Below, piece by piece: positions 3,092 to 18,674 of a DNA stretch of 43,646 nt. A model generated the notes under the pieces. That model had not been told where the DNA came from. It searched no databases and saw nothing but the letters and a program-made list of their open reading frames with translations. A program made the position numbers and the translations under genes. The DNA lies in assembly GCA_050743385.1 (NCBI GenBank), contig JBOGFJ010000079.1, positions 1-43,646 of the forward strand. The letters run 5' to 3'. Source of the DNA: Acidimicrobiia bacterium (lineage in GTDB: Bacteria > Actinomycetota > Acidimicrobiia > IMCC26256 > JACDBD01). Numbering within the stretch: position 1 is the stretch's first letter; each line of letters begins with the position of its first letter.

Positions 3092-3114
3092 GTCATCGGT
3101 GAACTCACCTAGAT
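3092..3114. repeat. Left copy of a perfect 23-bp inverted repeat (gtcatcggtgaactcacctagat) with palindromic core GGTGA-N2-TCACC
   Basis: Its exact reverse complement is at 6059-6081. It lies 19 nt upstream of the LAL regulator ATG, in the purL/LAL divergent intergenic region. Confidence 0.9.
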
Positions 3115-3132
3115 GGGAAATACGATCGGCGG

Positions 3133-5991
3133 ATGCTCGTAGGCCGAGAAGGGCAGCTCGCACTCCTGAGGGCCCTGGGCAGGGAGGCGCGCGCGGGGGC
3201 GGGGCAGGTGCTCCTCCTCGAAGGCGAGGCCGGTATCGGGAAGTCGGCGCTCCTCGACGCGTGCGTGGCGCAGTGCGAGCGCGACGGAGTCGTGGTGCTC
3301 CGCGGTCAGGGCGACGAGCTGGGCGCGACGAGGCCATTCGCCCCCCTCCTCGATGCCCTTGCTCACGGTCCCCACGGTGAGCAGACGCAGCGCGCGGTCC
3401 GCGAACGGATCGGGCGGGAGCGAAGTTCGCCGCACACCCTGCTCGAGACCGAGCCCGGCCTCCAGTCGGTGCTGGTCGACGACCTCGTGAACCGGATCGA
3501 GGAGCTGTGTGTCGACCAGCCGGTCGCGCTGTGCGTCGACGACCTGCACTGGGCCGACGGCGCGACGCTCACTGCACTGGCGTCGTTGGTACGCCGCGCC
3601 GTCGACCTGCCGCTCCTCGTTGCGCTGGCAATGCGCCCGATACCGCGCAGCGGTGACCTCGCCGCGTTCGTGGACATGCTCGATGACCGGCCTCCCGGCG
3701 TGCGCGCGACCCGCGCCGAGGTCGACCCTCTGGGACCCGACGACGTGAACGTGCTCGCGACCGGGGTGCTCGGAGCCCGGCCGGGACCGGGTCTCGACAG
3801 CCTCCTCGGTGCCTGCGCGGGGAACCCGCTCCTCGTCGTCGAGATGCTTGCGTCTCTGCGCGACGCCGGGCTGCTGGCGCGGAACGCCGGGACGGTCGAC
3901 ACGGCCACCGACCCGGCCGACCTGCACCTGCCGACGACGCTCACCCAGACGGTGCGGCGGCGGATGGCCCGCCTCGACGAAGAGCTGAAAGCCGTCGCCA
4001 CCGTCGCCGCGCTGCTGGGGACCCGCTTCACCCTCGGTGACCTCGCGTCGGTGACGGCACGGCCGGCGACCGAGCTGTTCCCGCTCGTCCAGACCCTGAT
4101 CGAGGCTCGGCTGTTCACCGACGACGGCACCGCACTCTCGTACCGGCATGACCTCGTGCGCGAGGCGGTCGTCTCGGCCCTGCCAGAGAGCGTCCGCGCC
4201 GAGCTGCACCGTGGGATCGCCCGCGCTCTCCAGGACGCGGGTGCACCGACCATGCGCGTGGCCGAGCAGCTCGCGCTGGGCGCGACCCCCGGTTCGGTCG
4301 AGGCCGTCTCGGTGTTGCGGAGCGCAGCCGAGGAGATCGCCCAGCAGGACCCGGGAGGCGCGGCGTCGCTGCTCCGACGGGCGCTCGAGCTCAGCGCACC
4401 CACCGACAGCCAGCGCGACCTCGTGCACGCGCAGCTCGTCGATGCCCTTTCGTGGAGCGGCCAGGTGACCGAGGCGCAGGCGATGGCCGACGAGGTCTTG
4501 TCGCGACCGGTCAGCCCGGACGCGGAGATCGGGCTGCGATCCGCGCTCAGCCGGTCGCTCTTGCTGCTGGCGCGACCGCACGACGCCATCCCCCACGAGG
4601 AGCGGCTCATCGAGTTGCGGCGAGGTGAGGGACGGTCGACAGCGTCGGCGCTGTCAGAGTGCGCGGCCTGCCGGGTATTCGGCCTCGACCTCGACGGCGC
4701 GCTCCACGACGCGGCCGAGGGGGTCCGGCTCGGTGAGCAAGACGGCGACGCCATGGCGGTGATCCTCGGGCTGTCGATCCAGGCGTTCGCCCAGACGGCG
4801 CTGGGTCACAGTGCCGTGGCCGTGGATCTCGCGACCCGGGCAGCCACCCTCGCGGATGCGACACCGGGTGGGGAGGGCCACCGCTTGCACCCCAACCTGT
4901 ACCGCGGCGTCGCGCTCCAGTCGCTCGGCCGGCACACGGAGGCGGCGCACGCGCTCGAGCGCGGCCGGACCCTCGGCGAGGCGCTCGGCGCGGCCTGGGC
5001 GCTGCCCATCTACCACCTCACCACCGCCCTCGCCCACTGGGACAGCGGCCGCTGGGACGACCTCCTGACCGAGATCGACGCCGGCACCGTTCACAGCGAA
5101 GAGCGGGCGCTCTCGATCGGGCAGGCATGGGCTTGTGCCGTCGCCGGCCGGGTCCACGTGCACCGAGGTGAGCTCGATCAGGCGGGGGTGATGCTCGACG
5201 CCGGCGACCGCATCGTGCAGGAACGGGGCATGCAGTTCGGGGGTGACTGGCTCGCGCTCTCGCGGGCGCTCCTGCTCGAAGCGCAGGGCAGACGGGCGGA
5301 CGGTCTCGACCTCCTGCGGCTGGTCTGGGAGACCGCCGCCGGGTTGCACGCGTCGGCATCGCTCGTGCTCGTCGGCGGTGACCTCGCCCGTCTGGCCGTG
5401 GAGGCGGGTGACGACGAGGGCGCACACCGGGTCGCGTCCGAGCTCGCCCGGCTCGTCGACCTCTCGCCGGACGATCTCGTCGTGCGAGGGCGCGAGCGGC
5501 GCGCCCGCGGGCTCGCGGACCGCGACGCCGGCGCCCTCCGTGCATCCGTCGAAGCCTTCGACCGGCTCGGTCACCGGTTCGAGACCGCGCTCGTACGAGC
5601 CGAGCTCGCCGAGCTGCTTCTCGCGCACGGTCGAGCCGACGACGCGTCGGGGCTGTTCGAAGAGTCTCTTGCCGGCTTCGACGCGATCGGCGCCGCGCCG
5701 GATGCCGACCGCGTGCGCGCCCGCCTGGCTCGCCTGGCGCCGTCGAAGGACCGCGTCCCCGCGCCCCGACGGGCGGTGTCGGGGTGGGATGCCCTGACCC
5801 CGACCGAGCTCGAGGTCGTCGACGAGGTTTGTGGCGGGCGGTCGAACCCGCAGGTGGCCGAGCGCCTGGGCATCAGCCGCCGGACGGTCGAGGCCCATCT
5901 GCGCAGCATCTACTCCAAGCTCGGCGTGTCGACGCGACTGGCGCTCGCGATCGCCCAGCGCGAACGCGCGGTCGCACCCACGCCGGATTGA
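3133..5991 (+). CDS. Large ATP-binding LuxR-family (LAL/MalT-like STAND) transcriptional regulator
   Basis: 952 aa. N-terminal P-loop LLLEGEAGIGKSALLDA and Walker B-like LCVDDLHWAD. Long helical/TPR-like middle region. C-terminal LuxR HTH LTPTELEVVDEVCGGRSNPQVAERLGISRRTVEAHLRSIYSKLGV. Confidence 0.9.
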   Translation: MLVGREGQLALLRALGREARAGAGQVLLLEGEAGIGKSALLDACVAQCERDGVVVLRGQGDELGATRPFAPLLDALAHGPHGEQTQRAVRERIGRERSSPHTLLETEPGLQSVLVDDLVNRIEELCVDQPVALCVDDLHWADGATLTALASLVRRAVDLPLLVALAMRPIPRSGDLAAFVDMLDDRPPGVRATRAEVDPLGPDDVNVLATGVLGARPGPGLDSLLGACAGNPLLVVEMLASLRDAGLLARNAGTVDTATDPADLHLPTTLTQTVRRRMARLDEELKAVATVAALLGTRFTLGDLASVTARPATELFPLVQTLIEARLFTDDGTALSYRHDLVREAVVSALPESVRAELHRGIARALQDAGAPTMRVAEQLALGATPGSVEAVSVLRSAAEEIAQQDPGGAASLLRRALELSAPTDSQRDLVHAQLVDALSWSGQVTEAQAMADEVLSRPVSPDAEIGLRSALSRSLLLLARPHDAIPHEERLIELRRGEGRSTASALSECAACRVFGLDLDGALHDAAEGVRLGEQDGDAMAVILGLSIQAFAQTALGHSAVAVDLATRAATLADATPGGEGHRLHPNLYRGVALQSLGRHTEAAHALERGRTLGEALGAAWALPIYHLTTALAHWDSGRWDDLLTEIDAGTVHSEERALSIGQAWACAVAGRVHVHRGELDQAGVMLDAGDRIVQERGMQFGGDWLALSRALLLEAQGRRADGLDLLRLVWETAAGLHASASLVLVGGDLARLAVEAGDDEGAHRVASELARLVDLSPDDLVVRGRERRARGLADRDAGALRASVEAFDRLGHRFETALVRAELAELLLAHGRADDASGLFEESLAGFDAIGAAPDADRVRARLARLAPSKDRVPAPRRAVSGWDALTPTELEVVDEVCGGRSNPQVAERLGISRRTVEAHLRSIYSKLGVSTRLALAIAQRERAVAPTPD

Positions 5992-6058
5992 GGTCAAACC
6001 ACCCGTTTCGCTCGCCTGGACCCGGGAGAAGCGAAAGCAGCACGCGCTCGAACCAGGG

Positions 6059-6081
6059 ATCTAGGTGAGTTCACCGATGAC
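6059..6081. repeat. Right copy of the 23-bp inverted repeat (atctaggtgagttcaccgatgac)
   Basis: Exact reverse complement of 3092-3114. Lies about 80 nt upstream of the preferred MMPL start. Confidence 0.9.
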
Positions 6082-6159
6082 GACGGGGCTCGCCGACCGT
6101 ACGGTCCGTCGCGATGCGCGCGATGTTCGATGTCCTACCGGGCAGCTGAGGGGAAGCGG

Positions 6160-8373
6160 ATGCGATCCCTCGCGCGCTTCGTCCTTCGGCGACGGCGGTG
6201 GATCCTCGGCGGCACCCTCGTCTTCCTGCTCGCTGCCGGGGCCTTCGGCAGTTCCGTAGCCTCTCATCTCTCGGTCGGCGGATTCGAGGATCCCGAGTCG
6301 GAGTCGGCGAAGACCGAGCGCAGCCTTCGGGAGCAGTTCGGGGCGGGCGACCCGGACTTCATTCTCCTCGTCACCTCGATCGACGGCGACGTGGACATGC
6401 CGACCGCGGTGCGCGCCGGCCGGGCGCTGACAGACGAGCTGTCGAGCGAGAGGCACGTCGCCGACGCGGTCTCGTACTGGAGCCCGAACAACGCGCCGCC
6501 ACTCCGCAGCGCCGACGGATCCCAGGCGCTCGTGCTCGCGCGACTCGTTGGCGACGACGACGAGGTGCGGGCGGTGGCCGAGGAGCTCTCGCCGCGGTAC
6601 ACGCGCCGCGGCGACGGGATCACGATCACGGTCGGCGGCGCGGGTGAGGTGTTCCGGCAAGTCACCGCCCAGGCGGAGGACGACCTCCGCCGCGCCGAGC
6701 TCCTGACTGCTCCCCTCGTCGCGATCGCGTTGCTCGTGGTGTTCGGGAGCATCGTCGCCGCGACACTGCCGTTCGCCGTCGCCGTGCTCGCGGTGCTCGG
6801 AACATTCCTGACGCTCACGGTCCTGGGCGAGCTGACGCAGGTCTCGATCTTCTCCTTGAACCTCACGACGGCGCTCGGCCTCGGGCTCGCCGTCGACTAC
6901 AGCCTGTTCGTCGTCTCTCGTTACCGCGAGGAGCTCGCCGCCGGGCGGCCGACGGAGGCGGCCATCTCGCGGACGATGCAGACCGCCGGCCGCACGGTCG
7001 CGTTCAGCGCGGCCACGGTGGCGGTGTCGCTGGCCGCCCTGCTCGTGTTCCCCGTCGCCTACCTGCGGTCGTTCGCGTACGCGGGCGTCGCGGTCGTCCT
7101 GCTCGCCGGCATCGGAGCCGTGGTCGTGCTCCCGGCGCTCCTCGCAGTGCTCGGGCCTCGCGTCGAGCGAGGGCAACTCTGGAAGCGGGCCGCGCGCGCC
7201 GGCAGCGGCTTCTGGCACGACCAGGCGACGCGGGTCATGCGTCGCCCGGTGCCCTACGCGGTCTTCGTCGTCGCGGTGCTCCTCCTTCTCGGGGCCCCGT
7301 TCCTGCGCCTCGAGGTGGGGCTCACCGACGACCGCGTGATCCCGGCCGGCCTGAGCAGCCGGGCGACCAACGACGCCATCAGGGAGAACTTCACGACGCG
7401 AGAAGCCGGTGCCCTCTCCGTCGTCGCCGACGCGGGCGACGGCACGATCGCGACCGCCGACATCGATTCGTACGCGACCCGGCTCTCCCGACTCGACAGC
7501 GTCGCGCGCGTGGATGCGCGTTCCGGGTACTACCTCGATGGGCAGCGACTCGCGCCCGACGAGCTCTCGGAGCGCTTTCGCGGCACGGGCTCGACGTGGC
7601 TGTCGGTCGTCCCCGACGTCGAGCCGTTCTCACCCGAAGGGGAGCAACTCGTGAGCGCGGTCCGCGAGCTCCCGAGCCCCTTCGAGGTCGCGGTGACCGG
7701 GCCTTCGGCGCGACTCGTCGACACGAAGGATTCGATCACGAGCCGGCTCCCGGCTGCGCTCGGCGTCGTCGCGCTGACAACCTTCGTTCTGCTGTTCCTG
7801 ATGGTCGGGAGCGTGGTCGTTCCCCTCAAGGCACTCGTGCTCAACGTGCTGAGCCTGACCGCCACGTTCGGCGCAATGGTGTGGGTATTCCAGGACGGGC
7901 ACTTGGCCGGCGCGCTCGACTTCACGCCAACCGGCTTCATCGACGTGTTCACCCCGATGCTCATGTTCTGCATCGCCTTCGGGCTCTCGATGGACTACGA
8001 GGTCTTCCTCCTGAGTCGCATCAAGGAGGAGTACGACCTCACCGGCGACAACCGCAACGCGGTGGCGCTCGGCCTGCAGCGCACGGGACGGATCGTGACG
8101 GCGGCAGCGGTGCTGCTCGCACTGGTGTTCGTGGCCTTCGCCACCTCCCAGGTCGCGATCGTGAAGCTGTTCGGAATTGGCCTCGCGCTCGCAGTACTCA
8201 TCGACGCGTTCCTGATCCGCGCCACCCTGCTGCCGGCGTTCATGCAGCTGGCCGGCCGCGCGAACTGGTGGGCGCCGCGGTCCATGCGGCGATGGCACCT
8301 CCGTTGGGGACTGTGGGAAGCGGAGCCGGTCGCGATCCTCGACGACGCTGTCCCGACCGGCGAGAGGGGCTGA
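6160..8373 (+). CDS. MMPL-family (RND superfamily) membrane transporter
   Basis: N-terminus MRSLARFVLRRRRWILGGTLVFLLAAGAFG. Two blocks of multiple TM helices separated by soluble loops, and length typical of MMPL. ATG 6160 is preceded by GAGGGGAAG; the track start 6130 is an alternative. Confidence 0.85.
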   Translation: MRSLARFVLRRRRWILGGTLVFLLAAGAFGSSVASHLSVGGFEDPESESAKTERSLREQFGAGDPDFILLVTSIDGDVDMPTAVRAGRALTDELSSERHVADAVSYWSPNNAPPLRSADGSQALVLARLVGDDDEVRAVAEELSPRYTRRGDGITITVGGAGEVFRQVTAQAEDDLRRAELLTAPLVAIALLVVFGSIVAATLPFAVAVLAVLGTFLTLTVLGELTQVSIFSLNLTTALGLGLAVDYSLFVVSRYREELAAGRPTEAAISRTMQTAGRTVAFSAATVAVSLAALLVFPVAYLRSFAYAGVAVVLLAGIGAVVVLPALLAVLGPRVERGQLWKRAARAGSGFWHDQATRVMRRPVPYAVFVVAVLLLLGAPFLRLEVGLTDDRVIPAGLSSRATNDAIRENFTTREAGALSVVADAGDGTIATADIDSYATRLSRLDSVARVDARSGYYLDGQRLAPDELSERFRGTGSTWLSVVPDVEPFSPEGEQLVSAVRELPSPFEVAVTGPSARLVDTKDSITSRLPAALGVVALTTFVLLFLMVGSVVVPLKALVLNVLSLTATFGAMVWVFQDGHLAGALDFTPTGFIDVFTPMLMFCIAFGLSMDYEVFLLSRIKEEYDLTGDNRNAVALGLQRTGRIVTAAAVLLALVFVAFATSQVAIVKLFGIGLALAVLIDAFLIRATLLPAFMQLAGRANWWAPRSMRRWHLRWGLWEAEPVAILDDAVPTGERG

Positions 8374-8376
8374 GGA

Positions 8377-8793
8377 ATGGCGAAGAAGCGCGAGCTCGTC
8401 GAGCGTCTCGCCACGGTCCCGCTGTTCTCGCGTTGCTCACGCCGCGAGCTCCAGATCGTCGCGCGGCACATCGACACCATCAGATTTCCTCCGGACACGG
8501 TGATCGTGACCGAGAACGAAGAAGGCGACGCATTCTTCGTCGTGCTCGACGGGCGGGCGCGCGTCAACCGCGACGGCGGCGCCGTGGGCAGGCTCGAGCC
8601 CGGCGCGTACTTCGGCGAGCTCGCCTTGCTCGACCCCGCGCCCCGGAGCGCCACTGTCGAGGCCGAGACCCCCGTGGAGGTCGGCGTGCTCGGAACCCGC
8701 ATGTTCCGCACGCTGCTGCGGGAGCTGCCCGCCATCAGTGAGCGGCTTCTCGCCGGGTTGGCACGCGAGCTCCGGGAGGCGACGCGCCGATGA
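8377..8793 (+). CDS. Stand-alone cyclic-nucleotide-binding (CAP/CNB-type) domain protein with no output domain
   Basis: 138 aa. Intact phosphate-binding cassette FGELALLDPAPRSATV. Starts 3 nt after the MMPL stop, and its stop overlaps the next start (ATGA 8790-8793). Confidence 0.85.
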   Translation: MAKKRELVERLATVPLFSRCSRRELQIVARHIDTIRFPPDTVIVTENEEGDAFFVVLDGRARVNRDGGAVGRLEPGAYFGELALLDPAPRSATVEAETPVEVGVLGTRMFRTLLRELPAISERLLAGLARELREATRR

Positions 8794-11700
8794 GCCCGCG
8801 AGCGAGCGGCACGTGGACGATCCTCTTCACCGATCTCGTCGGCTCGACCGAGCTGCGCGCCCGACTCGGTGACGACGAGGCCGACCGGCTGCGAGCCGCT
8901 CACGACCAGCTGCTGGGCGAGGCGGTCGAGACGCAGGGCGGCGACGTCGTCAAGGGGCTCGGCGACGGCATCATGGCGGCGTTCTCGGGTGCCGCCGACG
9001 CGGTCACGTGCGCCGTCGCGATGCAACAGGCGATCGATCGCCACAATCGCAGCTCCGCCGAACCGATCGACGTCCGTATCGGGATCAGCCTCGGCGACGC
9101 CCGCGCCGAGGAGAACGACCTCTTCGGCACCCCGGTCGTGGAAGCGGCTCGCTTGTGCGGCCGCGCCCAGGGCGGCCAGATCCTCTGCTCCGACCTCGTA
9201 CGCGCCGTCGCCGGCACCCGCGCTGCCCACGGCTTCAACCGCGTCGGCGAGCTCGAGCTCAAGGGCCTCCCCGAGCCGCTGGCGGTCTCGGAGGTGCTGT
9301 GGGAGCCGCTGCCGGTCGAGAGCCCGGCGTCGCCCATCCCGCTCCCCGGCGGCCTCGGCGTCGCCACGGACCGGTTCGCGTTCGTCGGCCGGGAAGACGA
9401 GCTCGAGAGCCTGCGGACGGCGGCGAAGCTGGCCGCCGAGGGAGATCGAGCGACGCTGCTGCTCGCGGGTGAGCCGGGCATCGGCAAGACGCGTCTCGCG
9501 TACGAGGTCGCACACGCACTGCACCACGATGGCGGCACCGTGCTCTACGGACGGTGTGACGACGAGGTCGGCGTTCCGTACCAACCCTTCGTCGAGGCGC
9601 TCGAGCACTTCGCCACGCACTGCCCGCCCGAAGAGATCTCGCGTCGCATGGGTCGGTACCCCGGTGAGCTCGCCCGCCTCGTGCCCTGGCTCACGGAGCA
9701 GATGCCCGACCTCCCTCCCCCGGTCGAGTCCGACCCGGAGACCGAGCGCTACCGCCTGTTCGAGGCCGTCGCCGGCTGGCTGGCCGCGACCTCCGATACC
9801 GAGCCGACGATCCTGATCCTCGACGACCTGCACTGGGCGGCAAAGCCCACCCTGTTGCTGTTCCGGCACATCGCGCAGTCGCAGGACGCGGCGCGCCTGC
9901 TCGTCATCGCCACCTACCGGGACACCGACCTCGAGCGCACCAGCGCGCTCCCGGAGGTGCTCGGCGACCTCCGGCGCACCGCCGGCGTCGAACGCGTCGC
10001 GCTCCGCGGCCTCGACGAGACCGGCGTCGTCGACTTCCTCGAGCACTCGGCCGGCCACACGATGGACGCCGCCGGGCTCGCCCTCGCCACCGCGATCCAT
10101 CACGAGACCGAGGGCAACCCGTTCTTCATCGGTGAGGTCCTCCGCCATCTGCGCGACACCGGCGCCATCTACGAGCAGGACGGCCGGTGGACCACCCATC
10201 TCCAGGTGAGCGAGCTCGGGATCCCCGAAGGTGTTCGGGAAGTGATCGGCCGCCGGCTGACGCGCCTCTCCGACGAGGCCAACCAGACGCTGACCCTGGC
10301 CGCGGTCGTGGGCCGGGGCTTCGAGCTCGAGGTCGTCGAGCGCGTGAGCGACCTCGACGAGGAGGAGCTGCTCGGCGCGCTCGACGAGGCCGTCGACGCC
10401 CGTCTCGTCCACGATACCGGCGTCGGTCGGTACCGCTTCGCGCACGCGCTCGTGCGGTCGACGCTCTACGACGAGGTTCGCCCGACTCGCAGGGCACGGC
10501 TCCACCAGCGCGTCGGCGCCGCCATCGAGGCCGCGCACGCCGCCGACCTCGACGACCACCTGGGCGAGCTCGCTCATCACTACGCCCGCTCGGCCGGGGG
10601 CGGCGAGGCCGCCAAGGCGGTCGAGTTCGCACGGCGGGCCGGCGAATACGCGCTCGCGCAGTTGGCCCACGACGACGCGGTCTCGTTGTTCGAACAGGCC
10701 GCCGACCTCCTCGACGACGGCAACGAGACCGAGCGCGGCGCGGTGCTGCTCGGGCTCGGCGTGGCCCGGCGGCGCGCCGGCGATCCCAGGTACCGGGAGA
10801 CGCTCCTCGAGGCGGCGCAGCTGGCCGACGAGCTCGGGGACGCCGACCTGCTCTGCCGAGCGGCGTTGGCCAACAACCGGGGCTTCTTCAGCGCGACCGG
10901 TGCCACCGACACCGGGCGCATCGCGGTGCTCGAGCGTGCGCTCGAGAAGATCGGGTCCGACGACAGCGCGACCCGGGCGCGTCTGCTCGCGAACCTCGCC
11001 CTCGAGGAGATCTTCGCCGGCGACCTGACGGATCGGCTCGCCCGGAGTGACGAGGCGCTCGCGGTAGCGCGCCGAGTGGGCGACGACGCGACGCTGGCGC
11101 ACGTGCTGACGACCCGGTCGGCGAGCATCTGGGATCCGAGCACGCTCGACGAGCGGCTCGCGAACACCGCCGACGTGGTCGAGCTGGCCGAGCGACTCGG
11201 CGATCCCTCCGCGCTCTTCTTCGCCACTTGGTACCGGATGGCCACGTGCCTGGAAGCAGGACGGGTCGACGAGTACGAGGGGTCGCTCGCGGACGTGAAG
11301 CAGTGGGCGGGCGAGCTGGGCCAGTCGACGCCGATCTGGATGGCGGAGTTCACCACCGCCAGCCACGAGTTCCTCCGCGGCCGATTCGACCGCGCCGAGG
11401 AACGCGCGCTGGCGTCACTCGACCTCGGTCAGCGCGCCAGCGAGCCCGACGCGGTGTTCTTCTTCGGCGTCCTGCTGTTCGGGATCCGGCGCGAGCAAGG
11501 ACGGCTCGTCGAGATCCGGGACCTCGTGCGGGTCGCGACCGAGGAGAACCAAGGCATCGCCGGCATCAGTGCGATGTTCGCCGACACGTGCACGCAGCTC
11601 GGCGAGCTCGACGAGGCTCGCGCACTCCTCGACCGGCTGGCGGAGTCGGGCTTCGGGAATCGACCGCGCGACCAGATCTGGTCCAGCTTCATGTGGATCT

Positions 11701-12089
11701 GCGCCGAGACTGCGGCCAGGCTCGGTGACACCGAGCGGGCACGCGCGCTCACCGACCTCCTCGAGCCCTACGAGACCCAGCTCGTCTACAACGGCCTGGT
11801 CCCGTTCGGTTCCGTCGGCTGCACCCTCGGCCGGCTCGCGCTCGCTCGGGGGCGCCTCGAAGACGCCGAGCGGCACTTCAGCCGCTCGCTCGAGACGGAA
11901 GAGCGCATGCGGGCGCCGGTGCTCGCGGCCCGGAGCCGCCTCGGCCTCGCTCGCGTGTTCCTCGCCCGTGGCACTGATGGTGACGGCGAACGCGCCCGGG
12001 CACTGCTCGACGAGGTCCTCGACGTCGCCCGCGAGTGCGGCGCCGCGGCCCTGGAGGCGGAAGCGCTGGCGACGACGGAGGGTGCCTGA
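8790..12089 (+). CDS. Class III adenylate/guanylate cyclase domain fused to a STAND/AAA_16 P-loop NTPase and a TPR-like helical region
   Basis: 1099 aa. Cyclase motifs ILFTDLVGST, VKGLGDGIMAAF and RIGISLGDA...LFGTPVVEAARL. P-loop LLLAGEPGIGKTRLA and Walker B ILILDDLHWA. About 600 aa of helical repeats. No HTH at the C-terminus. Confidence 0.9.
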   Translation: MSPRASGTWTILFTDLVGSTELRARLGDDEADRLRAAHDQLLGEAVETQGGDVVKGLGDGIMAAFSGAADAVTCAVAMQQAIDRHNRSSAEPIDVRIGISLGDARAEENDLFGTPVVEAARLCGRAQGGQILCSDLVRAVAGTRAAHGFNRVGELELKGLPEPLAVSEVLWEPLPVESPASPIPLPGGLGVATDRFAFVGREDELESLRTAAKLAAEGDRATLLLAGEPGIGKTRLAYEVAHALHHDGGTVLYGRCDDEVGVPYQPFVEALEHFATHCPPEEISRRMGRYPGELARLVPWLTEQMPDLPPPVESDPETERYRLFEAVAGWLAATSDTEPTILILDDLHWAAKPTLLLFRHIAQSQDAARLLVIATYRDTDLERTSALPEVLGDLRRTAGVERVALRGLDETGVVDFLEHSAGHTMDAAGLALATAIHHETEGNPFFIGEVLRHLRDTGAIYEQDGRWTTHLQVSELGIPEGVREVIGRRLTRLSDEANQTLTLAAVVGRGFELEVVERVSDLDEEELLGALDEAVDARLVHDTGVGRYRFAHALVRSTLYDEVRPTRRARLHQRVGAAIEAAHAADLDDHLGELAHHYARSAGGGEAAKAVEFARRAGEYALAQLAHDDAVSLFEQAADLLDDGNETERGAVLLGLGVARRRAGDPRYRETLLEAAQLADELGDADLLCRAALANNRGFFSATGATDTGRIAVLERALEKIGSDDSATRARLLANLALEEIFAGDLTDRLARSDEALAVARRVGDDATLAHVLTTRSASIWDPSTLDERLANTADVVELAERLGDPSALFFATWYRMATCLEAGRVDEYEGSLADVKQWAGELGQSTPIWMAEFTTASHEFLRGRFDRAEERALASLDLGQRASEPDAVFFFGVLLFGIRREQGRLVEIRDLVRVATEENQGIAGISAMFADTCTQLGELDEARALLDRLAESGFGNRPRDQIWSSFMWICAETAARLGDTERARALTDLLEPYETQLVYNGLVPFGSVGCTLGRLALARGRLEDAERHFSRSLETEERMRAPVLAARSRLGLARVFLARGTDGDGERARALLDEVLDVARECGAAALEAEALATTEGA

Positions 12090-13873
12090 TGCTGCGAGCC
12101 ACCGAGCTGCCACCGCGGACGTTCCTCGGTCAGCTCTCTCCCGACGAACGCGACCAGCTCCTCGCTCGCTGGCCCCGTCGCCGCTTCCCGGCAGGCTCGA
12201 TCGTGATCGAGCGGGGCGAGCTCGGGGCGGGCGTGTACGTGGTCTTGACCGGATCGGCCGAGGTCCTCGCCCCCGAACCGTCGGGGGAGGCCCGGCGGCT
12301 CGCGCTCGTCGGCGAGGGTGACCTGCTCGGCGAGCTGGGCTTGTTCAGTGGACAGGCGGCCTCCAGCACCGTGCGCGCGGTCACAGATGTCGAGGCGCTC
12401 GCGGTGGAGGCCGACGATGCACTGGACGCGGCGCGGGAGTTGCCCTGGCTGTACCCCGCCCTCGGCAGCGTCGTCGCCGAACGCCTCGTGCGCACGCAAC
12501 GCCAGTTGCTGGCGACGCGGACGGGACGCGTCATCGTGCTGCGCGACCAGGACGCTCCGCCGATGCTCCCCTTCGCCGTCGGTGCGAGCATCGCCTGGCA
12601 CACACGCGAGCGCGTCCTTCTCGTTCTCTCCGGCGCGCCGGTGGGTGACCTCCCGGTGCCCGTGCACGACTGTGCCGACGCCGACGACCTGCTCGCGCTC
12701 GCCGGCGAGGTCGGCGCGGACCCCGCGTGCCGCGTGGCACGTGTCACGAGGGCGTGGGACTCGGTCGAGCTCGCCGCGGCGGTGCGGCGGGCGGCCGAGC
12801 TCGCGCCCACGGTCGTTGTCTGCAGTCCTGCGTCGCTGGGCGTAGACGTCGGAGCTGACATCGAGGCGCAGATCACCGCGCCGGCGAGGCCCCGTCCGGC
12901 GGAGGGATCGCTCACGATCGTGGGGTGGGCGACCGGGGCGCGACCCGGCGAGCTCCCGGTGCGCGAGCCGCGCGGGCAGGAGCTCACCGACCTCACCGCC
13001 GGGCGCATCGGCCTCGCCGGGCCCGCGGGCCGCGATCTCGGGCGCGCGGCGCGTTCGTTGATCCGCCATCGCGTCGGTCTCGCACTCGGGTCGGGCAGCG
13101 CGCGTGGCTTCGCCCACGTCGGGGTGTTGCGAGCCTTCGCGCAATACGGCATACCGGTGGACGCCATCGCCGGGACCAGCATCGGCGCCGCCGTCGCCGC
13201 TCTCCATGCGGGTGGCGAGACGCCGGAGCAGATCTTCGCCACGCTCACCCAGGCCGGGCGGCTGGCGGTGCGGCCGTTCGGAACCGGGCGATCGCTGCTG
13301 TCGATCGCGGGGCTCCGCACGCTGATCGAGCACCGGGCGGCCGGCCGCCGCATCGAGGAGCTCCCGATCCCGCTCGCGGTCGTCGCCGCCGACCTCGACA
13401 CCGGACAGGAGATCGTGCTGCACCGGGGTGCGCTGGCCGCCGCCGTCCTGGCCAGCCTGGCGATCCCCGGGGTCTACCCACCGCAACACGTCGCCGGCCG
13501 TCGCCTCATCGACGGGGCCTACGTCGATCCGGTACCGGTGCAGGTGACCGCGTCGCTGGGCGTCGACAAGGTCGTCGCGGTCAGGCTCGCGACCCGGCCG
13601 CCGACCGGCCTCGTCGAGACCGAGTCCGCCGTGACGAAGGGCGAGTCCCTCTGGGCACCGCAGGTCATCCTGCGCTCGCTCGACGTGATGGCGGGCGCGA
13701 TCGCCGCGTCCGCGGCCACCGCCGCGGACGTTCTCGTCGAGCCCTCGTTCCACGGCCTCGGCGGCGGCCTGCGCGACTTTCGCCGGGGACGCGAGTACGA
13801 GCGCGTGGGCGAGGCAGCCACCCGGGCGGTGCTCCCCGCCCTGGCCGACGCGCTGCCGTGGGTCGACGCGTGA
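12089..13873 (+). CDS. cNMP-binding-domain / patatin-like phospholipase fusion (NTE-like)
   Basis: ATG 12089 overlaps the upstream TGA by 1 nt (TGATG). N-terminal CNB fold (GELGLFSGQAASSTVRA). Patatin motifs LALGSGSARGFAHVGVL, GTSIGA (GxSxG) and DGAYVDPVP (DGA). Confidence 0.9.
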   Translation: MLRATELPPRTFLGQLSPDERDQLLARWPRRRFPAGSIVIERGELGAGVYVVLTGSAEVLAPEPSGEARRLALVGEGDLLGELGLFSGQAASSTVRAVTDVEALAVEADDALDAARELPWLYPALGSVVAERLVRTQRQLLATRTGRVIVLRDQDAPPMLPFAVGASIAWHTRERVLLVLSGAPVGDLPVPVHDCADADDLLALAGEVGADPACRVARVTRAWDSVELAAAVRRAAELAPTVVVCSPASLGVDVGADIEAQITAPARPRPAEGSLTIVGWATGARPGELPVREPRGQELTDLTAGRIGLAGPAGRDLGRAARSLIRHRVGLALGSGSARGFAHVGVLRAFAQYGIPVDAIAGTSIGAAVAALHAGGETPEQIFATLTQAGRLAVRPFGTGRSLLSIAGLRTLIEHRAAGRRIEELPIPLAVVAADLDTGQEIVLHRGALAAAVLASLAIPGVYPPQHVAGRRLIDGAYVDPVPVQVTASLGVDKVVAVRLATRPPTGLVETESAVTKGESLWAPQVILRSLDVMAGAIAASAATAADVLVEPSFHGLGGGLRDFRRGREYERVGEAATRAVLPALADALPWVDA

Positions 13874-13912
13874 CGTGAACGTTCGCAAACGACGAGTCCG
13901 AGGAGGACTGTG

Positions 13913-14803
13913 ATGCCGACCGCGACCGAACCAGCCGCTGCGATCTCCGACGACGAGCTCTTCGCTCGCATCGAGGTGCGCCCGCCGTACTTCTCGCTCA
14001 CCGACCTCCGGCGGGGCCACGACAACGCCATGTCGGCGCGGGTACAGACCCGGCAGTCGCTCGGAGGTGAAGCCGGCCCGGTGAGCGCGGCCGAGACCGG
14101 CCGGCACCTCGCCATCCTCGGGTCGTGCTCGGCGGCGTTCGCCAACCCGGCGGCCGCCCGGCACTTCTACCTCGCCTACGACGCCGAGCTGCGCCGGTCG
14201 CGTACCCGGATCGAGCCCGACTACGCAGGTGAGCTCGTCGCCCGCGGCCGCGCCGATTTCATCGATCCGTCGACCGCGATCGCGGTCACCGAGCTCCGGA
14301 CCGAGGACGGCCGCACGATCTACAGCCTCATCGTGTACTACCTGGTCGTCCCGGAGAACGACTTCCGGACGCTGTTCGCGGCGCACGCGCACCCGGACGC
14401 CGCCCTCGAGGGACGACCCGACCCATTCGAGGACGTCATCGGCTTGGACGACGTGTCGGTGTGGGACACCCGGCTCCACGGCACGCTCGGGCGCATCGAC
14501 CCGTACCGCTGCGCCGGGCACTTTCCGGGGCTGCCGGCGATGCCGGTGGCGTTCCTCATGTCGAACCTCAGCGCGGCGGCCGCTCGCGTTCTGAAGCACG
14601 TTCTCGACCGCGACGAACTCGACTACGTGATCCGCGAGGCCTCGGTACGGGCCGAGAACCTCGCGTTCACCGACGAGCGCGTCGACATCCACGTCGAGTA
14701 CCAGCGGTTCGCGAGCGGTACACACTGGCTGCACTGCGCCGCGATCGCGGAGGGAACGAAGTCCGTCGGGCAGACGCACATCAAGGTTCGCGTCCGCGAC
14801 TGA
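13913..14803 (+). CDS. Hypothetical protein with a FabZ-like hot-dog motif in the C-terminal half; possibly a double hot-dog fold
   Basis: AGGAGG at 13901-13906 lies 6 nt before ATG 13913 (GTG 13910 is also possible). The motif CAGHFPGLPAMPVAFLMSNL resembles FabZ HFPxxPxMPGvlliE, but Ser replaces the Glu. Confidence 0.6.
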   Translation: MPTATEPAAAISDDELFARIEVRPPYFSLTDLRRGHDNAMSARVQTRQSLGGEAGPVSAAETGRHLAILGSCSAAFANPAAARHFYLAYDAELRRSRTRIEPDYAGELVARGRADFIDPSTAIAVTELRTEDGRTIYSLIVYYLVVPENDFRTLFAAHAHPDAALEGRPDPFEDVIGLDDVSVWDTRLHGTLGRIDPYRCAGHFPGLPAMPVAFLMSNLSAAAARVLKHVLDRDELDYVIREASVRAENLAFTDERVDIHVEYQRFASGTHWLHCAAIAEGTKSVGQTHIKVRVRD

Positions 14804-14911
14804 CTCTCTGGTCGCACTCGCTCCGCTCGCCGCTCCGCACGCGCCTGGCGGTCCGGAGGCGGGCGACAGTCGTCTTGCGGTGCGCCGGGCTTCGGTGCTG
14901 AGGTCCGTCTC

Positions 14912-16315
14912 ATGAGCCTTGTTCCACTCGAGCCCGACCGCGTCGAGATGGACCGTATGGGGGCGGCGGCACTGGCGTTCGTCAACGACTTCATCGACGC
15001 GCGGACCGTCGTACCGGCATCCGCCCTCGAGGGCGCCTGGCCGCTCGCCGACGACCTCGTGGCTGCGCGACCGCCGGCGATCGGCCGCCCGCTGGGCGAG
15101 CTCCTCCACGTCGTCGACGCCGCGGCCGCACGCGCGGTCGATACCGCCGGGCCCGGCTACCTGGCCTACGTTCCCGGCGGCGGGCTCTTCGCCGCTGCTC
15201 TGGCCGACTTCGTCGCGTGCGCGATCAACCGGTTCGTCAACCTTGCCGATCTCGCCCCGGCAACGGCCGCGATCGAGGCATCGGTGATCCGCTGGCTCTG
15301 CGAGCTGTTCGCCCTGCCGGCGTCCTCGCAGGGGATCCTCACGTCGGGCGGGTCGATGGCCAACCTGTCGGCGATCGTGACTGCCCGCGCCACGCTGTTG
15401 GGCGACGACTTCGCCGACGGCACGCTCTACGTGTCGCCGCACACGCACCAGTCGGTGGCGAAGGCGGCGATGATCGCGGGCTTTCCGCCGGCTTCGGTGC
15501 GATCCGTCGCCTGCAGCGCCGATCTCGCGCTCGATCCCTCGGCGCTCCGAGAGGCGATCCGAGCCGACCGCGCGTCCGGTCGGCGTCCGTTCTGCGTCGT
15601 CGCCACTGCGGGAACGACCAACACCGGTGCCGTCGACCCCATCGACGACATCGCGACCGTCGCCGCCGAGGAAGAGCTGTGGTGCCACGTCGACGCCGCC
15701 TACGGGGGGTTCTTCCAGCTGACGGAGCGAGGACGTGCTCGCTTCACCGGGATCGAGCGCGCCGACTCGATCACCCTCGACCCCCACAAGGGCATGTTCC
15801 TGCCGTACGGCACGGGCTGCCTGCTCGTGCGCGACGGGGGGCGACTGCGCGCCGCCCACCACGTCGGCAGCGAGCTCTTCCAAGATCTCGGCGCGGCCGG
15901 CGGCATTCCGAACTACGCCGAGTACTCGCCCGAGCTGTCGCGCGACTTCCGCGGCTTGCGTGTCTGGCTGCCGCTCCATCTTCACGGGGTCGACGCCTTC
16001 GGGGCCGCGCTCGACGAGAAGCTCGACCTCACCCGGACCGTCTTCGACGGCCTGCGGGCCACGGCCGAGATCGAGATTTCCTGGGACCCGCCGCTCAGCA
16101 TCGTGGCGTTCCGTCTCGCCGGCCGCGACGACGCCGCTAACCGGCAGCTCCTCGACCGGATCAATGCGTCGAGGCGGATCGCGCTCTCCAGCACGATGGT
16201 CGGCGGCCGTTACACCCTGCGGGTGTGCGTGCTCTCGCACCGGACGCACCGCGACCGGATCGAAGAAGCCGTGGCGATCATTCGCGAGTCGGCGCTCGCC
16301 GAAATTGGCAAATAG
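14912..16315 (+). CDS. PLP-dependent group II amino-acid decarboxylase family protein
   Basis: 467 aa. ILTSGGSMANLSAIVTAR, and the PLP-lysine motif SITLDPHKGMFLPYGTGCLLVRD, which resembles tyrosine/aromatic decarboxylases. Confidence 0.85.
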   Translation: MSLVPLEPDRVEMDRMGAAALAFVNDFIDARTVVPASALEGAWPLADDLVAARPPAIGRPLGELLHVVDAAAARAVDTAGPGYLAYVPGGGLFAAALADFVACAINRFVNLADLAPATAAIEASVIRWLCELFALPASSQGILTSGGSMANLSAIVTARATLLGDDFADGTLYVSPHTHQSVAKAAMIAGFPPASVRSVACSADLALDPSALREAIRADRASGRRPFCVVATAGTTNTGAVDPIDDIATVAAEEELWCHVDAAYGGFFQLTERGRARFTGIERADSITLDPHKGMFLPYGTGCLLVRDGGRLRAAHHVGSELFQDLGAAGGIPNYAEYSPELSRDFRGLRVWLPLHLHGVDAFGAALDEKLDLTRTVFDGLRATAEIEISWDPPLSIVAFRLAGRDDAANRQLLDRINASRRIALSSTMVGGRYTLRVCVLSHRTHRDRIEEAVAIIRESALAEIGK

Positions 16316-16353
16316 AATGGCGCGCCAATAGATCAATAGCAGGGAGACGATCG

Positions 16354-16770
16354 ATGGCCGCAGCCCGAAAGAAGACGACCATGACCACCGCCCACAAGCG
16401 GGCGCTGGCCGAGGGTCGCGAGCTCGGCCGGGCGGTGCGCCGCTACCTCGACGCCCTTGATCAGAACCGCCCGCGGCGGGGCCGGAAGCGCACGCCGGAG
16501 TCGATCGAGCGCCGCCTCGACGCGATCTCCGCGCAGCTCGACTCCGCGACCCCGCTCCAGCGACTCCAACTCGTGCAGGAGCGCCTGGATCTGACGGCCG
16601 AGCTCGACCAGCTCGACGCCAAGATCGACCTCTCGGCCCTCGAGCGCGACTTCGCCAAGGTGGCGAAGGACTATGCGCAGCGCAAGGGCATCTCGTATGC
16701 GGCCTGGCGCGAGCTCGGCGTCCCCCCCGACGTGCTCAAGAAAGCCGGCATCGGCCGCGGGAGCGCCTAA
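16354..16770 (+). CDS. Small basic helical protein, hypothetical; has an AT-hook-like RPRRGRKR motif and may bind nucleic acid
   Basis: AGGGAGA at 16341-16347 precedes ATG 16354. 138 aa with a coiled-coil-like sequence. The N-terminal extension in the track (from 16225) overlaps the decarboxylase 3' end and looks spurious. Confidence 0.6.
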   Translation: MAAARKKTTMTTAHKRALAEGRELGRAVRRYLDALDQNRPRRGRKRTPESIERRLDAISAQLDSATPLQRLQLVQERLDLTAELDQLDAKIDLSALERDFAKVAKDYAQRKGISYAAWRELGVPPDVLKKAGIGRGSA

Positions 16771-16780
16771 CCGTCTCGGC

Positions 16781-16827
16781 GCGTTGGGTCGAAAGCGCGG
16801 TTATACGCCGACTTTCTGACCCAACGC
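16781..16827. terminator. Long hairpin between convergent genes; its right arm overlaps the last codons and stop of purQ
   Basis: gcgttgggtc (16781-16790) pairs perfectly with gacccaacgc (16818-16827). The stem extends with gaaag/ctttc. No obvious T-tract. Confidence 0.45.
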
Positions 16828-17508
16828 GGTGGGGGGAGAAGTGCCGCCCGCCGCCGCGAGGAGCGAGCGCAGCAGGACGGTGCCGTCGGTGGAGCCGATG
16901 AGGGCGTCGGAGGCGCGCTCGGGGTGGGGCATGAGCCCGACGACGTTGCGTCCCTCGTTGCACACGCCGGCGATCGAGTCGAGTGACCCGTTGGGATTGC
17001 TCACGTAACGCGCCACCACCCGCTCGTCGGCGCGGAGACGCTCGAGCGTGGCGGTGTCGCACACGTAGTTGCCCTCGAAGTGGTTGATCGGCAGGCGCAG
17101 CACGGCCCCCCGCTCCGCTTGGTTGGTGAGCACCGTGGTGGTCGTCTCCACGCGGCACTCGACCGTCTCGCACAGGAACTTCAGGCCTGCGTTCTTCTGC
17201 AGCGCACCCGGCAGGAGCCCGGCCTCGGTGAGCACCTGGAAGCCGTTGCAGATCCCGACCACCGGCCCGCCTGCGACCGCGAACGCCGCCAGCGCCTCCA
17301 TCACCGGCGAGAAGCGCGCGATCGCGCCGGTGCGGAGGTAGTCGCCGTGGGCGAACCCGCCCGGCACCACGACGGCGTCGACGCCGTGGAGATCGCGCTC
17401 GCCGTGCCACAACAGCTCCGCCGACCCGCCGACGTGCTCGACGGCCCAGGCGACGTCGTGCTCGCAATTCGTCCCGGGAAACAGGACGATCCCGACGCGG
17501 GCGCTCAT
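16801..17508 (-). CDS. purQ: FGAM synthase glutamine amidotransferase subunit (subunit I)
   Basis: [23 protein letters not shown]...[10 protein letters not shown]...ICNGFQVL...PHPER. ATG 17508 overlaps the purS stop (ATGA). The longer track ORF adds an Arg-rich, implausible N-terminus. Confidence 0.93.
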
Positions 17509-17768
17509 GTGCGGCTCAGCTCCGAGAGCTCGATCTCGTAGCCCTCGATCACGGGATTGGCGAGGAGCCGGCGACACATCTCGTCGACCTGCGCTCGGGC
17601 GACGGCCTCGTCGGACGCTTCGACGACCAGACGGATGCTCTTGCCGACGCGCACCTCGGAGACGTTGTCGTAGCCCAGGGCCGGCAGCGCCCGCTCGACC
17701 GTTGCACCCTGCGGATCGAGGATGCCGGGGAGATGTGTGATGTCGACGCGCGCCTCGAACCGGCTCAC
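17505..17768 (-). CDS. purS: FGAM synthase subunit PurS
   Basis: 87 aa. MSRFEARVDITHLPGILDPQGATVERALPALGY is typical of PurS. GTG start. Confidence 0.9.
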   Translation of the reverse strand: MSRFEARVDITHLPGILDPQGATVERALPALGYDNVSEVRVGKSIRLVVEASDEAVARAQVDEMCRRLLANPVIEGYEIELSELSRT

Positions 17769-17786
17769 TTCAACCAGCGTACCGAC

Positions 17787-18674
17787 TCAGTCCTCGACCC
17801 CGTGCCACTCGTCGAAGCTCTCGCCAGTCAGCAGCTCGTAGGCCTCGACGTAGCGAGCGCGGGTGCCGTCGATCACCGCGTCAGGGAGGCGCGGCGCCGG
17901 CGCCACCTGGTTCCACCCCGTCGACAGGTAGTGGTCGCGCACGAACTGCTTGTCGAACGACGGCGGCGACGTGCCGACCTCGTACTCCTCCACCGGCCAG
18001 TAGCGCGACGAGTCAGGCGTCAGCACCTCGTCGATCAGCAGCAGCCTGCCGTCGAACGTGCCGAACTCCAGCTTGGTGTCGGCGAGGATGACGCCGCGCG
18101 ACTCGGCGTGAGCGGCACCGAACCGGTACACGTCGAGGGTCGCCGCGCGAACCTGCTCGAACGTGTCGGCGCCGACGAGCTCGACGGCTTCGGCATCGGT
18201 GAGAGGAAGATCGTGCCCGGTCTCGGCCTTGGTGGTGGAGGTGAAGATCGGCTCGGGGAGACGCTCGGCCTGTCGCAACCCGGGTGGAAGGCGCCGGTCG
18301 TTCACGATGCCGCGCTCGTCGTACTCCGACCAGGCCGATCCGAACAGGTAGCCGCGCGCGATGCACTCGAGCCGGATCGGCTGCGTGGCGCGCACGAGCA
18401 TCGCCCGCCCGGCGACCTCGGGGCCGGCGGTCTCGGGGAAGTCGGTGGGGTCCGACGAGATCAGATGGTTGGGGAAGACCGATTGCGTGCGCTCGAACCA
18501 GAACGTCGCCAACGCCGTGAGAACCCGGCCCTTGTCGGGGATCTCGTCGTCGAGCACCACATCGAAGACGGAGATGCGGTCGGACGCGACAATCAGCATG
18601 CGGTCGTGGTCGACGTCGTAGAGGTCGCGCACCTTGCCCGTGTAGTGGTGCGGCAGGGCAATCGAACGGGTCAC
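17787..18674 (-). CDS. purC: SAICAR synthetase
   Basis: HHYTGKVRDLYDVDHDRMLIVASDRISVFD...ILADTKLEFG. GTG 18674 overlaps the purB stop (GTGA). The upstream part of the track ORF is Arg-rich and spurious. Confidence 0.93.
   Translation of the reverse strand: MTRSIALPHHYTGKVRDLYDVDHDRMLIVASDRISVFDVVLDDEIPDKGRVLTALATFWFERTQSVFPNHLISSDPTDFPETAGPEVAGRAMLVRATQPIRLECIARGYLFGSAWSEYDERGIVNDRRLPPGLRQAERLPEPIFTSTTKAETGHDLPLTDAEAVELVGADTFEQVRAATLDVYRFGAAHAESRGVILADTKLEFGTFDGRLLLIDEVLTPDSSRYWPVEEYEVGTSPPSFDKQFVRDHYLSTGWNQVAPAPRLPDAVIDGTRARYVEAYELLTGESFDEWHGVED

Follow-up and report, generated by a model that had tools for sequence, protein, structure and literature searches.

Eukaryotic enzymes of the NTE/PNPLA6 family deacylate membrane phospholipids and take part in lipid homeostasis (PMC9025805), and bacterial NTE-like lipases with domains of the type that binds cyclic nucleoside monophosphates (cNMPs) are widespread in Actinomycetota and Chloroflexota. 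Here we describe an operon that contains such a lipase in a 43,646-nucleotide (nt) stretch of DNA (the window) from an Acidimicrobiia bacterium (contig JBOGFJ010000079.1 of assembly GCA_050743385.1). The lipase, a fusion of a cyclic-nucleotide-binding (CNB) domain and a patatin domain (CNB-patatin), is encoded together with a stand-alone CNB protein (free CNB) and a class III cyclase fused to a STAND NTPase (cyclase-STAND), and these three genes, the triad, lie within a seven-gene accessory island. We read the island as an accessory operon for lipid remodelling and export with built-in cyclic AMP (cAMP) signalling, in which the triad would be the signalling core, and assign to this reading a probability of about 0.55. 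Each architecture was already known; their combination into this operon was new to the literature searched, in which we found no description of this operon and no functional study of patatin-cNMP-cyclase operons in general.

Similar to the NTE/PNPLA6 enzymes, the window lipase begins with a CNB domain and has a patatin domain whose motifs form a Ser-Asp dyad; between the two is a domain predicted to be of alpha/beta type. The differences are that it belongs to a subfamily without the arginine of the CNB cassette, that its middle domain is not recognised by the Pfam NTE_Ploop profile and that its gene is operonic with those of an MMPL pump, the cyclase-STAND, the free CNB and a double-hotdog protein. 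We take Rv2565, Rv3239c and Rv3728 of M. tuberculosis to be bacterial CNB-patatin relatives; no functional study of bacterial CNB-patatin proteins, including Rv2565, was found in the literature searched.

The cyclase domain has the same active-site set as Ma1120/Rv1120c and Rv1900c (LipJ), with a residue other than Asn at the transition-state position; unlike the genes of mycobacterial cyclases, its gene is translationally coupled to those of two CNB proteins. In its domain order (cyclase-AAA_16-TPR), the protein matched the NCBIfam entry TIGR03903 ('TOMM system kinase/cyclase fusion protein') with 204 bits, which is below the cut-off. Rv0386 is presumably the type of multidomain cyclase-ATPase-TPR protein with which the cyclase-STAND is to be compared. 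It differs from TIGR03903-type and Rv0386-type proteins in having neither a LuxR-type helix-turn-helix (HTH) nor a kinase domain, and the cyclic nucleotide would therefore be its only output. LAL/MalT-type STAND regulators, one of which (LAL) is encoded 3 kb upstream, share a homologous NTPase with an AAA_16 domain and a TPR arm, but their output is a C-terminal LuxR HTH, whereas that of the window protein is an N-terminal cyclase.

Two groups of antiphage systems also resemble the triad. In the pyrimidine and purine cyclase systems for antiphage resistance (Pycsar and Pucsar), an effector fused to a CNB responds to the mononucleotide cNMP that a class III-like cyclase produces. The specificity residues of the window cyclase, however, predict ATP and not CTP, UTP or GTP as the substrate, and the cyclase is fused to a 900-residue STAND-TPR module in an operon with genes for lipid transport and processing. 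The effectors described for these systems are CNB-TIR or transmembrane proteins, whereas the window candidate is a patatin whose CNB lacks the arginine. Antiphage systems that signal through cyclic oligonucleotides (CBASS) with CapV or CapE combine a nucleotide second messenger with a patatin phospholipase of related fold, but the ligand-sensing domain in the window is a CNB and not of the CapV type.

Gene order and junctions

A filter on codon-position GC content revealed seven consecutive genes on the forward strand (3133-16315) of the window, which has an overall GC content of 70%. In order, these encode a LAL regulator, an MMPL transporter, the free CNB, the cyclase-STAND, the CNB-patatin, a double-hotdog protein (hyp297) and a pyridoxal phosphate (PLP)-dependent decarboxylase (Table 1). 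The three open reading frames (ORFs) of the triad had the codon-position GC of real genes, with a GC3 of 0.87-0.90. A preliminary description of this DNA, made from the sequence alone, had reported three overlapping, translationally coupled ORFs and had named their domains. Both overlaps (ATGA, 4 nt, at 8790-8793; TGATG, 1 nt, at 12087-12091) were present exactly as claimed, and the named domains were recovered by Pfam profile search. The coupling also reached further in both directions, which had been missed: the MMPL stop codon lies 3 nt before the ATG of the free CNB, and gaps of 36 nt and 108 nt lead from the lipase to hyp297 and from there to the decarboxylase. The junctions between the MMPL, CNB, cyclase-STAND and CNB-patatin genes are thus, in this order, a gap of 3 nt and overlaps of 4 nt and 1 nt. 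In two related loci, L012 and L309 (L and P numbers are our labels for related loci and proteins), the triad recurred with this gene order and these overlaps, so that the junctions are not due to chance and the proposed translational coupling stands.

The two types of CNB domain

The free CNB contains the cassette FGELALLDPAPRSATVEA (PRSAT), which aligned with the CNB domains of PKA and PKG and shows the canonical pattern G-E...R-[ST]-A, so that the phosphate-binding cassette is intact, as previously described. The protein was 94% identical in L012 and L309. The CNB of the patatin protein, in turn, has a non-canonical cassette, GELGLFSGQAASSTVRA (AASST), in which Arg is replaced by Ala, a feature that the preliminary description had overlooked. 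Within the CNB-patatin family, this cassette Arg was absent from 49 of 51 members (Ala in 40, Val in 5, His in 2, Ile in 1 and Pro in 1), and the two exceptions that bear it, L224 and L225, belong to a different subfamily. It was kept in all neighbouring non-patatin CNB domains (12/12). The absence of the Arg from 49/51 members makes the step in which a cNMP binds the lipase receptor doubtful.

Elsewhere in the window, a second stand-alone CNB gene (35150-35578) encodes a paralogue of the triad CNB (phmmer E 3e-38) with the cassette FGDLALLDRAPRNATITA. This second gene adjoins dnaK-grpE-dnaJ-hspR and is positioned directly upstream of that for a membrane CCG/4Fe-4S oxidoreductase (35660-37882).

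Structure of the CNB-patatin lipase

Pfam located cNMP_binding at residues 30-114 (E 3.5e-18) and Patatin at residues 331-486 (E 4e-26) of the lipase. Its translation has the motifs of a patatin-like phospholipase, namely the oxyanion motif GSGSARG, GTSIG and DGA, all of which were invariant across 21 family members; the GxSxG and DGA dyad motifs had rightly been called intact. Foldseek revealed that the patatin domain was structurally closest to PlpD, with a TM score of 0.81, and that CapE and CapV were farther away (about 0.6), which places it nearer to PlpD/RssA-type enzymes than to CapV. In the AlphaFold2 (AF2) model (predicted local distance difference test score, pLDDT, 81), the middle domain (residues ~146-320) consists of alternating beta and alpha elements. 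This domain gave no match to Pfam NTE_Ploop (PF24179) even at E 10, and the corresponding scores of L224 and L225 were 1e-26 to 1e-30. When the lipase family was compared with NTE_Ploop-containing relatives in hhalign, the two aligned over their full length (549 columns) with a probability of 100. Relatives of the CNB-patatin are named 'NTE family protein' by the Joint Genome Institute (JGI).

The CNB-patatin gene of an actinobacterial metagenome-assembled genome (MAG; L018, the same as L052), like those of two metagenome contigs (L014 and L016), is part of a conserved peroxidase cluster, where it is flanked by genes for an animal-haem-peroxidase-family protein, a Pyr_redox_2-CNB fusion and an FAD_binding_4/ALO oxidase. 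A lipase adjoining a peroxidase in these loci suggests a bacterial oxylipin-type pathway. In Chloroflexota, ABC transporters fused to FHA and CNB domains adjoin the CNB-patatin (3667-6891 in L026 and 5548-8268 in L048), an arrangement that we take to resemble the M. tuberculosis Rv2564-Rv2565 pair.

The cyclase-STAND protein

The cyclase-STAND matched Guanylate_cyc over residues 7-159 (E 7e-10) and AAA_16 over residues 198-373 (E 3.9e-27), and Pfam gave weak matches to TPR_12 and TPR_19; the TPR-like arm spans residues ~620-1099. Its translation contains the Walker motifs GEPGIGKT and ILDDLHWA, as reported before, and the protein has the Walker A, Walker B and helical/TPR arm of an AAA_16-type STAND NTPase. 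This NTPase was homologous to that of the LAL regulator of the island (phmmer E ~1e-22). No HTH family was found by Pfam in the 1099 residues at E<=0.01, in agreement with the earlier statement that the protein has no DNA-binding output; the neighbouring LAL scores 2e-13 with GerE.

The nearest solved relatives of the cyclase domain were Ma1120 (E 1e-28) and Rv1900c/LipJ (E 6e-19), both of them housekeeping, physiological adenylyl cyclases of mycobacteria. Five residues (D15, K55, D59, D110 and R121) were kept in all 10 orthologues aligned, and these comprise both metal Asp, the Lys/Asp pair that specifies adenine, and the Arg. The transition-state Asn position is occupied by Val in the window cyclase and by Val, Ile or Ala across the clade. 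Ma1120, which has Ala (A164) at this position, is an active adenylyl cyclase, and its A164N mutant loses activity (PMC4215837). Because the catalytic set is kept and Ma1120 is active without the Asn, the domain is probably catalytically active, and the Lys/Asp pair together with the Ma1120-like active site leads to ordinary cAMP as the predicted product. The idea of a dead cyclase was rejected, as the Asn is lacking throughout the clade and also from the active enzyme Ma1120.

An exact look-up of the window cyclase-STAND returned no record, and a homologue search found a 100% identical cluster. Acidimicrobiia have a very large family of such proteins. Of 8000 scored candidates, 7898 matched the cyclase-STAND, the cyclase-AAA_16-TPR proteins of ~1100 residues formed more than 120 clusters with identities of at least 48%, and a genome has several copies, with paralogues together on single contigs (for example, P0253/P0298, P0294/P0312 and P0261/P0263).

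A predicted second source of cAMP in the window is an FHA-domain class III cyclase that adjoins clpB and has the same active-site type (Lys/Asp, non-Asn). Its gene (26490-27575, reverse strand) and that of a Ser/Thr protein kinase (27556-29475, forward strand) are divergent, and the 5' end of the cyclase gene overlaps the start of the kinase gene by ~20 nt. In several relatives (L154, L159 and L174), an MMPL gene lies just past clpB.

Insertion of the island into a core locus

The ends of the island were mapped by blastn against the closest relative, L144 (~80% nt identity). Positions 362-2775 and 16309-20299 of the window aligned to segments of L144 that are only ~37 nt apart, and the insert is therefore 2776-16308, exactly LAL through decarboxylase. 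The locus was also surveyed in the 36 closest PurL loci, of which ~23 had readable flanks. In all of these ~23 MAGs, purA-purD-purB-purC, a short conserved segment and purL were contiguous on one strand, and none of the seven island genes was present between the purC side and purL. The earlier remark that the triad lies in an inserted block was thus borne out.

The rest of the window consists of core genes, which include purL, purC, purB, purD, purA, clpB, the FHA-cyclase, the Ser/Thr kinase, hspR-dnaJ-grpE-dnaK and dcd; the best match of PurL was 83% and came from Acidimicrobiia. The GC content of the island is that of its flanks, and no terminal repeats (direct or inverted), target duplication, tRNA or integrase were seen at its ends. 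Consensus scans for promoters and terminators were uninformative in DNA of 70% GC.

Since the left boundary (2758-2776) lies upstream of the start codon of purL at a distance of only ~17-20 nt, the purL promoter region is now island DNA. At the right junction, a small forward-strand ORF (16354-16770, 138 residues) is preceded by GGGAGA and matched no Pfam family; its DNA is kept in relatives with 73-82% nt identity. An ORF on the reverse strand (16736-17467, 'hyp243') was rejected as a gene, since codon-position GC showed it to be a wrong-frame reading of conserved DNA, and it served as a synteny marker only. Further along the window, tRNA-Gly(CCC) (40483-40554) directly precedes a tyrosine integrase gene (40582-42021). 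They are the only tRNA and integrase found in the window and probably mark where an integrated element ends; this element is unconnected with the island, 24 kb away.

Gene neighbourhoods of related loci

The whole island block was found in L309 (~87% nt identity), the only relative with the complete set. The amino acid identities were 92% for LAL, 90% for MMPL, 94% for CNB, 86% for cyclase-STAND, 89% for CNB-patatin, 85% for hotdog and 68% for the start of the decarboxylase. Six shorter contigs carried parts of the block, and the same local order was present in L012, L013 and L099-L103, with lipase identities of 73-90%; L013 diverges past the hotdog gene. A metagenome scan added only five further close contigs. 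Beyond this lineage, where lipase identity is at most 40%, the exact triad was not seen, and tblastn revealed no triad at seven cyclase-STAND loci of ~40% identity (L001-L007). As to whether the triad occurs together in other genomes, synteny does recur, but in close relatives only (at least 73% amino acid identity).

More distant loci revealed parts of the arrangement. In L015 and L104, MMPL orthologues (57-61% identity) are directly ahead of the CNB-patatin, with no cyclase between them; in L015 the two genes overlap. The hotdog gene was linked with a cyclase-STAND in three different gene orders, namely those of the window, L224 and L228. In particular, L224 contains a cyclase-STAND at 55% identity, desaturases, an acyl-CoA dehydrogenase, a paralogous CNB-NTE_Ploop-patatin, a hotdog at 70% and an MMPL; in L228, the hotdog is followed by a cyclase-STAND and then a LAL, and there is no patatin. 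A canonical CNB-NTE-patatin overlaps the hotdog gene in L225, with a free CNB nearby, and in every close relative the hotdog gene comes after the CNB-patatin. The history that fits best is an ancestral core of an NTE-type lipase paired with MMPL and/or hotdog, into which, in this lineage, a local cAMP pair (free receptor and sensor-cyclase) was spliced between MMPL and lipase. In L228, a long-read MAG, the cyclase-STAND and LAL genes appear to be split by frameshifts (10726-14215 and 16580-19386), which are probably assembly errors rather than signs of pseudogenes.

CNB-patatin loci elsewhere also carry An_peroxidase, Pyr_redox_2-CNB, fatty acid desaturase, CMAS, 4HBT thioesterase, acyltransferase and MMPL genes. 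Cyclase-STAND homologues of ~40% identity adjoin genes for WS/DGAT (twice), patatin, alpha/beta hydrolase, acyl/acetyl-CoA synthetase, MMPL and a tandem-CNB protein. No recognisable defence gene (restriction-modification, toxin-antitoxin, TIR, nuclease or caspase) was found in the neighbourhoods of the relatives or beside the island. In a rough enrichment test, with non-independent loci and a single control locus, 38 loci with CNB-patatin were set against 80 controls at purL: cyclases were near the anchor gene in 7/38 against 1/80 (p 0.0014), other CNB proteins in 9/38 against 0/80 (p 2e-5) and MMPL in 9/38 against 3/80 (p 0.002). The statistical link between the CNB-patatin family and cNMP-signalling genes is real.

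Other genes of the island and a candidate operator

The MMPL of the island matched the 'actII' subfamily of NCBIfam. For hyp297, no Pfam family was assigned, and only marginal FabZ matches were obtained in sequence searches of Pfam, NCBIfam and the PDB; the protein contains the FabZ-like motif GHFPGLPAMP (HFPGxPxxP type). The top Foldseek matches of its model in the PDB were TesB-type acyl-CoA thioesterases and acyl-ACP thioesterases, and we are confident in the predicted structure as that of a TesB-like double hotdog. A distant member of the hotdog family, P0189, is fused to an acyl carrier protein domain. The PLP decarboxylase is present in L100 and L309 and is replaced in L013.

The 23-nt inverted repeat ahead of the LAL and MMPL genes consists of GTCATCGGTGAACTCACCTAGAT and its complement, which are 100% complementary and share the core GGTGA-N2-TCACC. 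Two copies were found in the window, where 0.19 are expected. The element was also kept base for base upstream of MMPL in L309 (~1983-2005), where the surrounding spacer had diverged. It is probably an operator for the island, and the regulator would most simply be LAL.

Table 1. Features of the accessory island and their positions in the window
Feature	Position	Strand	Size	Description
Accessory island	2776-16308	+	13.5 kb	seven genes, between purL and purC-side core genes
Inverted repeat, left copy	3092-3114		23 nt	19 nt upstream of LAL start
LAL-type regulator	3133-5991	+	952 aa	AAA_16 E 6e-23, TPR, GerE E 2e-13 (Pfam)
Inverted repeat, right copy	6059-6081		23 nt	49 nt upstream of MMPL start
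MMPL/RND-type lipid transporter	6130-8373	+	747 aa	Pfam MMPL E 1e-82
Stand-alone CNB protein	8377-8793	+	138 aa	Pfam cNMP_binding E 5e-20; canonical phosphate-binding cassette
Cyclase-STAND	8790-12089	+	1099 aa	predicted class III adenylyl cyclase, AAA_16, TPR-like sensor, no HTH
Probable NTE-family CNB-patatin lipase	12089-13873	+	594 aa from ATG	CNB, alpha/beta middle domain, patatin
Double-hotdog protein hyp297	13910-14803	+	297 aa	AF2 pLDDT 94; TesB-type matches in Foldseek
Group II PLP-dependent decarboxylase	14912-16315	+	467 aa	Pyridoxal_deC E 4e-57; last island gene

Proposed mechanism

In the model that we propose, the LAL regulator would drive its own promoter and the MMPL operon through the 23-nt element. 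The TPR arm of the cyclase-STAND would sense an intracellular cue, and ATP-dependent oligomerisation of the STAND module would pair two cyclase domains for cAMP production, a pairing that is needed because class III cyclases work as dimers. The free CNB, the sole receptor here with a canonical cassette, would bind cAMP locally. The output would be regulated acyl-ester hydrolysis by the NTE-type patatin; as its own CNB lacks the phosphate-binding Arg, the lipase might depend on the free CNB acting in trans, or it might respond to a different ligand. The TesB-like double hotdog would then process acyl chains and the MMPL pump would transport the lipid or product, with the net effect of signal-dependent lipid remodelling or mobilisation and export, and not of cell suicide. 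Of the specific hypotheses, we find most interesting the one in which a lipase whose own CNB has lost cAMP sensing is provided with it in trans by the free CNB.

Several points weigh against this reading. Gene content, insertion and junctions were observed, whereas we infer all functional steps of the model. Because the CNB of the lipase has no Arg, its link to cAMP is indirect and speculative, and the model names no lipid substrate and gives the PLP decarboxylase no role. The loci of the enrichment test are not independent. Additionally, the TPR arm of the cyclase-STAND was 80% identical, compared with 92% for its cyclase and NTPase. Immune sensors are typically STAND NTPases whose sensor arms evolve fast; a faster-evolving arm fits a sensor whether immune or not. 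An accessory island in a variable spot also fits defence islands, and cNMP cyclases fused to STAND modules (NACHT or AP-ATPase) form a predicted immune clade ('immune clade 1'; bioRxiv 10.64898/2026.08.12.744502).

Alternative explanations

The preliminary description had proposed a design like that of CBASS or Pycsar and had named a cAMP-regulated housekeeping lipase module as the sober alternative. As an anti-phage abortive infection system, the STAND-TPR part would detect a phage protein and activate the cyclase, the cyclic nucleotide would turn on the patatin by way of a CNB domain, and the lipase would destroy the membrane, with the free CNB as a buffer that sets the threshold. We consider this improbable, and the same applies to its more general form, an immune or stress-suicide relay of three components on a mobile island (an NLR-like STAND-TPR sensor-cyclase, a free CNB as obligatory adaptor in trans or as threshold-setter, and an NTE-type lipase with a nucleotide-blind CNB). 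The accessory location and the STAND sensor keep the defence reading alive: the insertion lies in a conserved core locus and is absent from related genomes, divergence of the enzymatic parts is slower than that of the sensor arm, STAND-fused cNMP cyclases are predicted to be immune, the cyclase-STAND has expanded into many paralogues as NLR-like sensors have, and the patatin fold is common to CapV and CapE. PADLOC also detected the cyclase and CNB with its Pycsar models, but in a scan of the seven island proteins such matches were at the domain level and none reached membership of any family. The best PycC match (27.8 bits, E 3.7e-7) covered residues 10-106 of the cyclase-STAND only, the PycTIR models matched only the CNB part, and the phospholipase effector model PDLC00755 (CapV-type) matched residues 331-385 only, with 14 bits and E 0.0046. 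None of the island proteins matched a CD-NTase model in the scan, and no such domain appeared in the Pfam scans of the window genes; by its low PADLOC score and a Foldseek ranking of PlpD above CapE and CapV, the patatin does not qualify as a CapV-type effector of CBASS. The weak PycC score and a Lys/Asp pair predicted to specify ATP argue against a member of the PycC clade, which makes cyclic pyrimidines, and a CNB fused to a patatin is neither the CNB-TIR nor the CNB-transmembrane effector of Pycsar.

Other observations point in the same direction. Ordinary cAMP, with a further cyclase in the window and an expanded paralogue family as other predicted sources, is a poor basis for a suicide trigger, as cross-talk would be a hazard with a lethal effector. 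The effector CNB lacks the key Arg, the patatin is closest to PlpD/RssA-type enzymes and not CapV, the operon includes a co-translated MMPL transporter and continues into a thioesterase-like hotdog and a decarboxylase, and the neighbourhoods of relatives are lipid-metabolic. No relative was found among 2.9 million IMG/VR viral contigs. Taken together, the predicted plain cAMP, the Arg-less effector CNB, the co-translation with a transporter and the lipid-metabolic neighbours of every component argue against a suicide system, and the earlier proposal of a CBASS/Pycsar-like design was supported only in part. A cAMP-regulated lipase module fits better; 'housekeeping' does not apply, since the module is accessory.

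The island might instead serve the biosynthesis of a specialised lipid or lipo-amine metabolite as a small gene cluster, with the patatin (as acyl hydrolase or transferase), hotdog and PLP decarboxylase as enzymes, MMPL as the exporter, and LAL, cyclase-STAND and CNB as regulators of expression or of enzyme activity. Accessory clusters in actinobacteria typically contain LAL regulators and MMPL exporters (here with an 'actII' match), all seven genes of the island move as one unit (L309), a conserved candidate operator precedes both the regulator and the operon, and a distant hotdog relative (P0189) has an acyl carrier protein domain fused to it. The island contains no condensing enzyme, ligase or synthase, however, the PLP decarboxylase is not kept in L013, L224 and L225, and elsewhere the core is only lipase and hotdog or MMPL and lipase, so we regard such a cluster as unlikely, though slightly less so than defence. 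It is very unlikely that there is no dedicated signalling link at all, that is, that an abundant cyclase-STAND/CNB pair landed by chance in an MMPL-lipase operon and its proteins feed and read the global cAMP pool. This would agree with the size of the cyclase-STAND family and its paralogues on single contigs, with relatives of ~40% identity that have no CNB-patatin neighbours and with the direct MMPL-CNB-patatin contacts of L015 and L104. Against it, the genes are joined by the overlaps and the 3-nt gap in an order kept across relatives of 73-100% identity, the cyclase-STAND is linked with the hotdog in three independent arrangements, and the surroundings of the lipase family show an enrichment of cyclase and CNB genes.

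Significance

The locus presents an unusually explicit genetic wiring for a bacterial NTE-like lipase, which is co-translated with a dedicated sensor-cyclase, a free receptor with a canonical cassette, a hotdog that would process acyl chains and an MMPL exporter. It is also a borderline case for the prediction of defence systems: the grammar of sensor, cyclic nucleotide and lipase that defines CBASS and Pycsar is found here in what appears to be lipid physiology, so that immunity can be over-called where domain grammar is the sole guide. Were the defence reading true, it would add a STAND-gated, cAMP-based, three-component system. For the bacterial NTE lipases, the locus makes it testable whether their odd CNB domains bind nucleotides and what regulates these enzymes.

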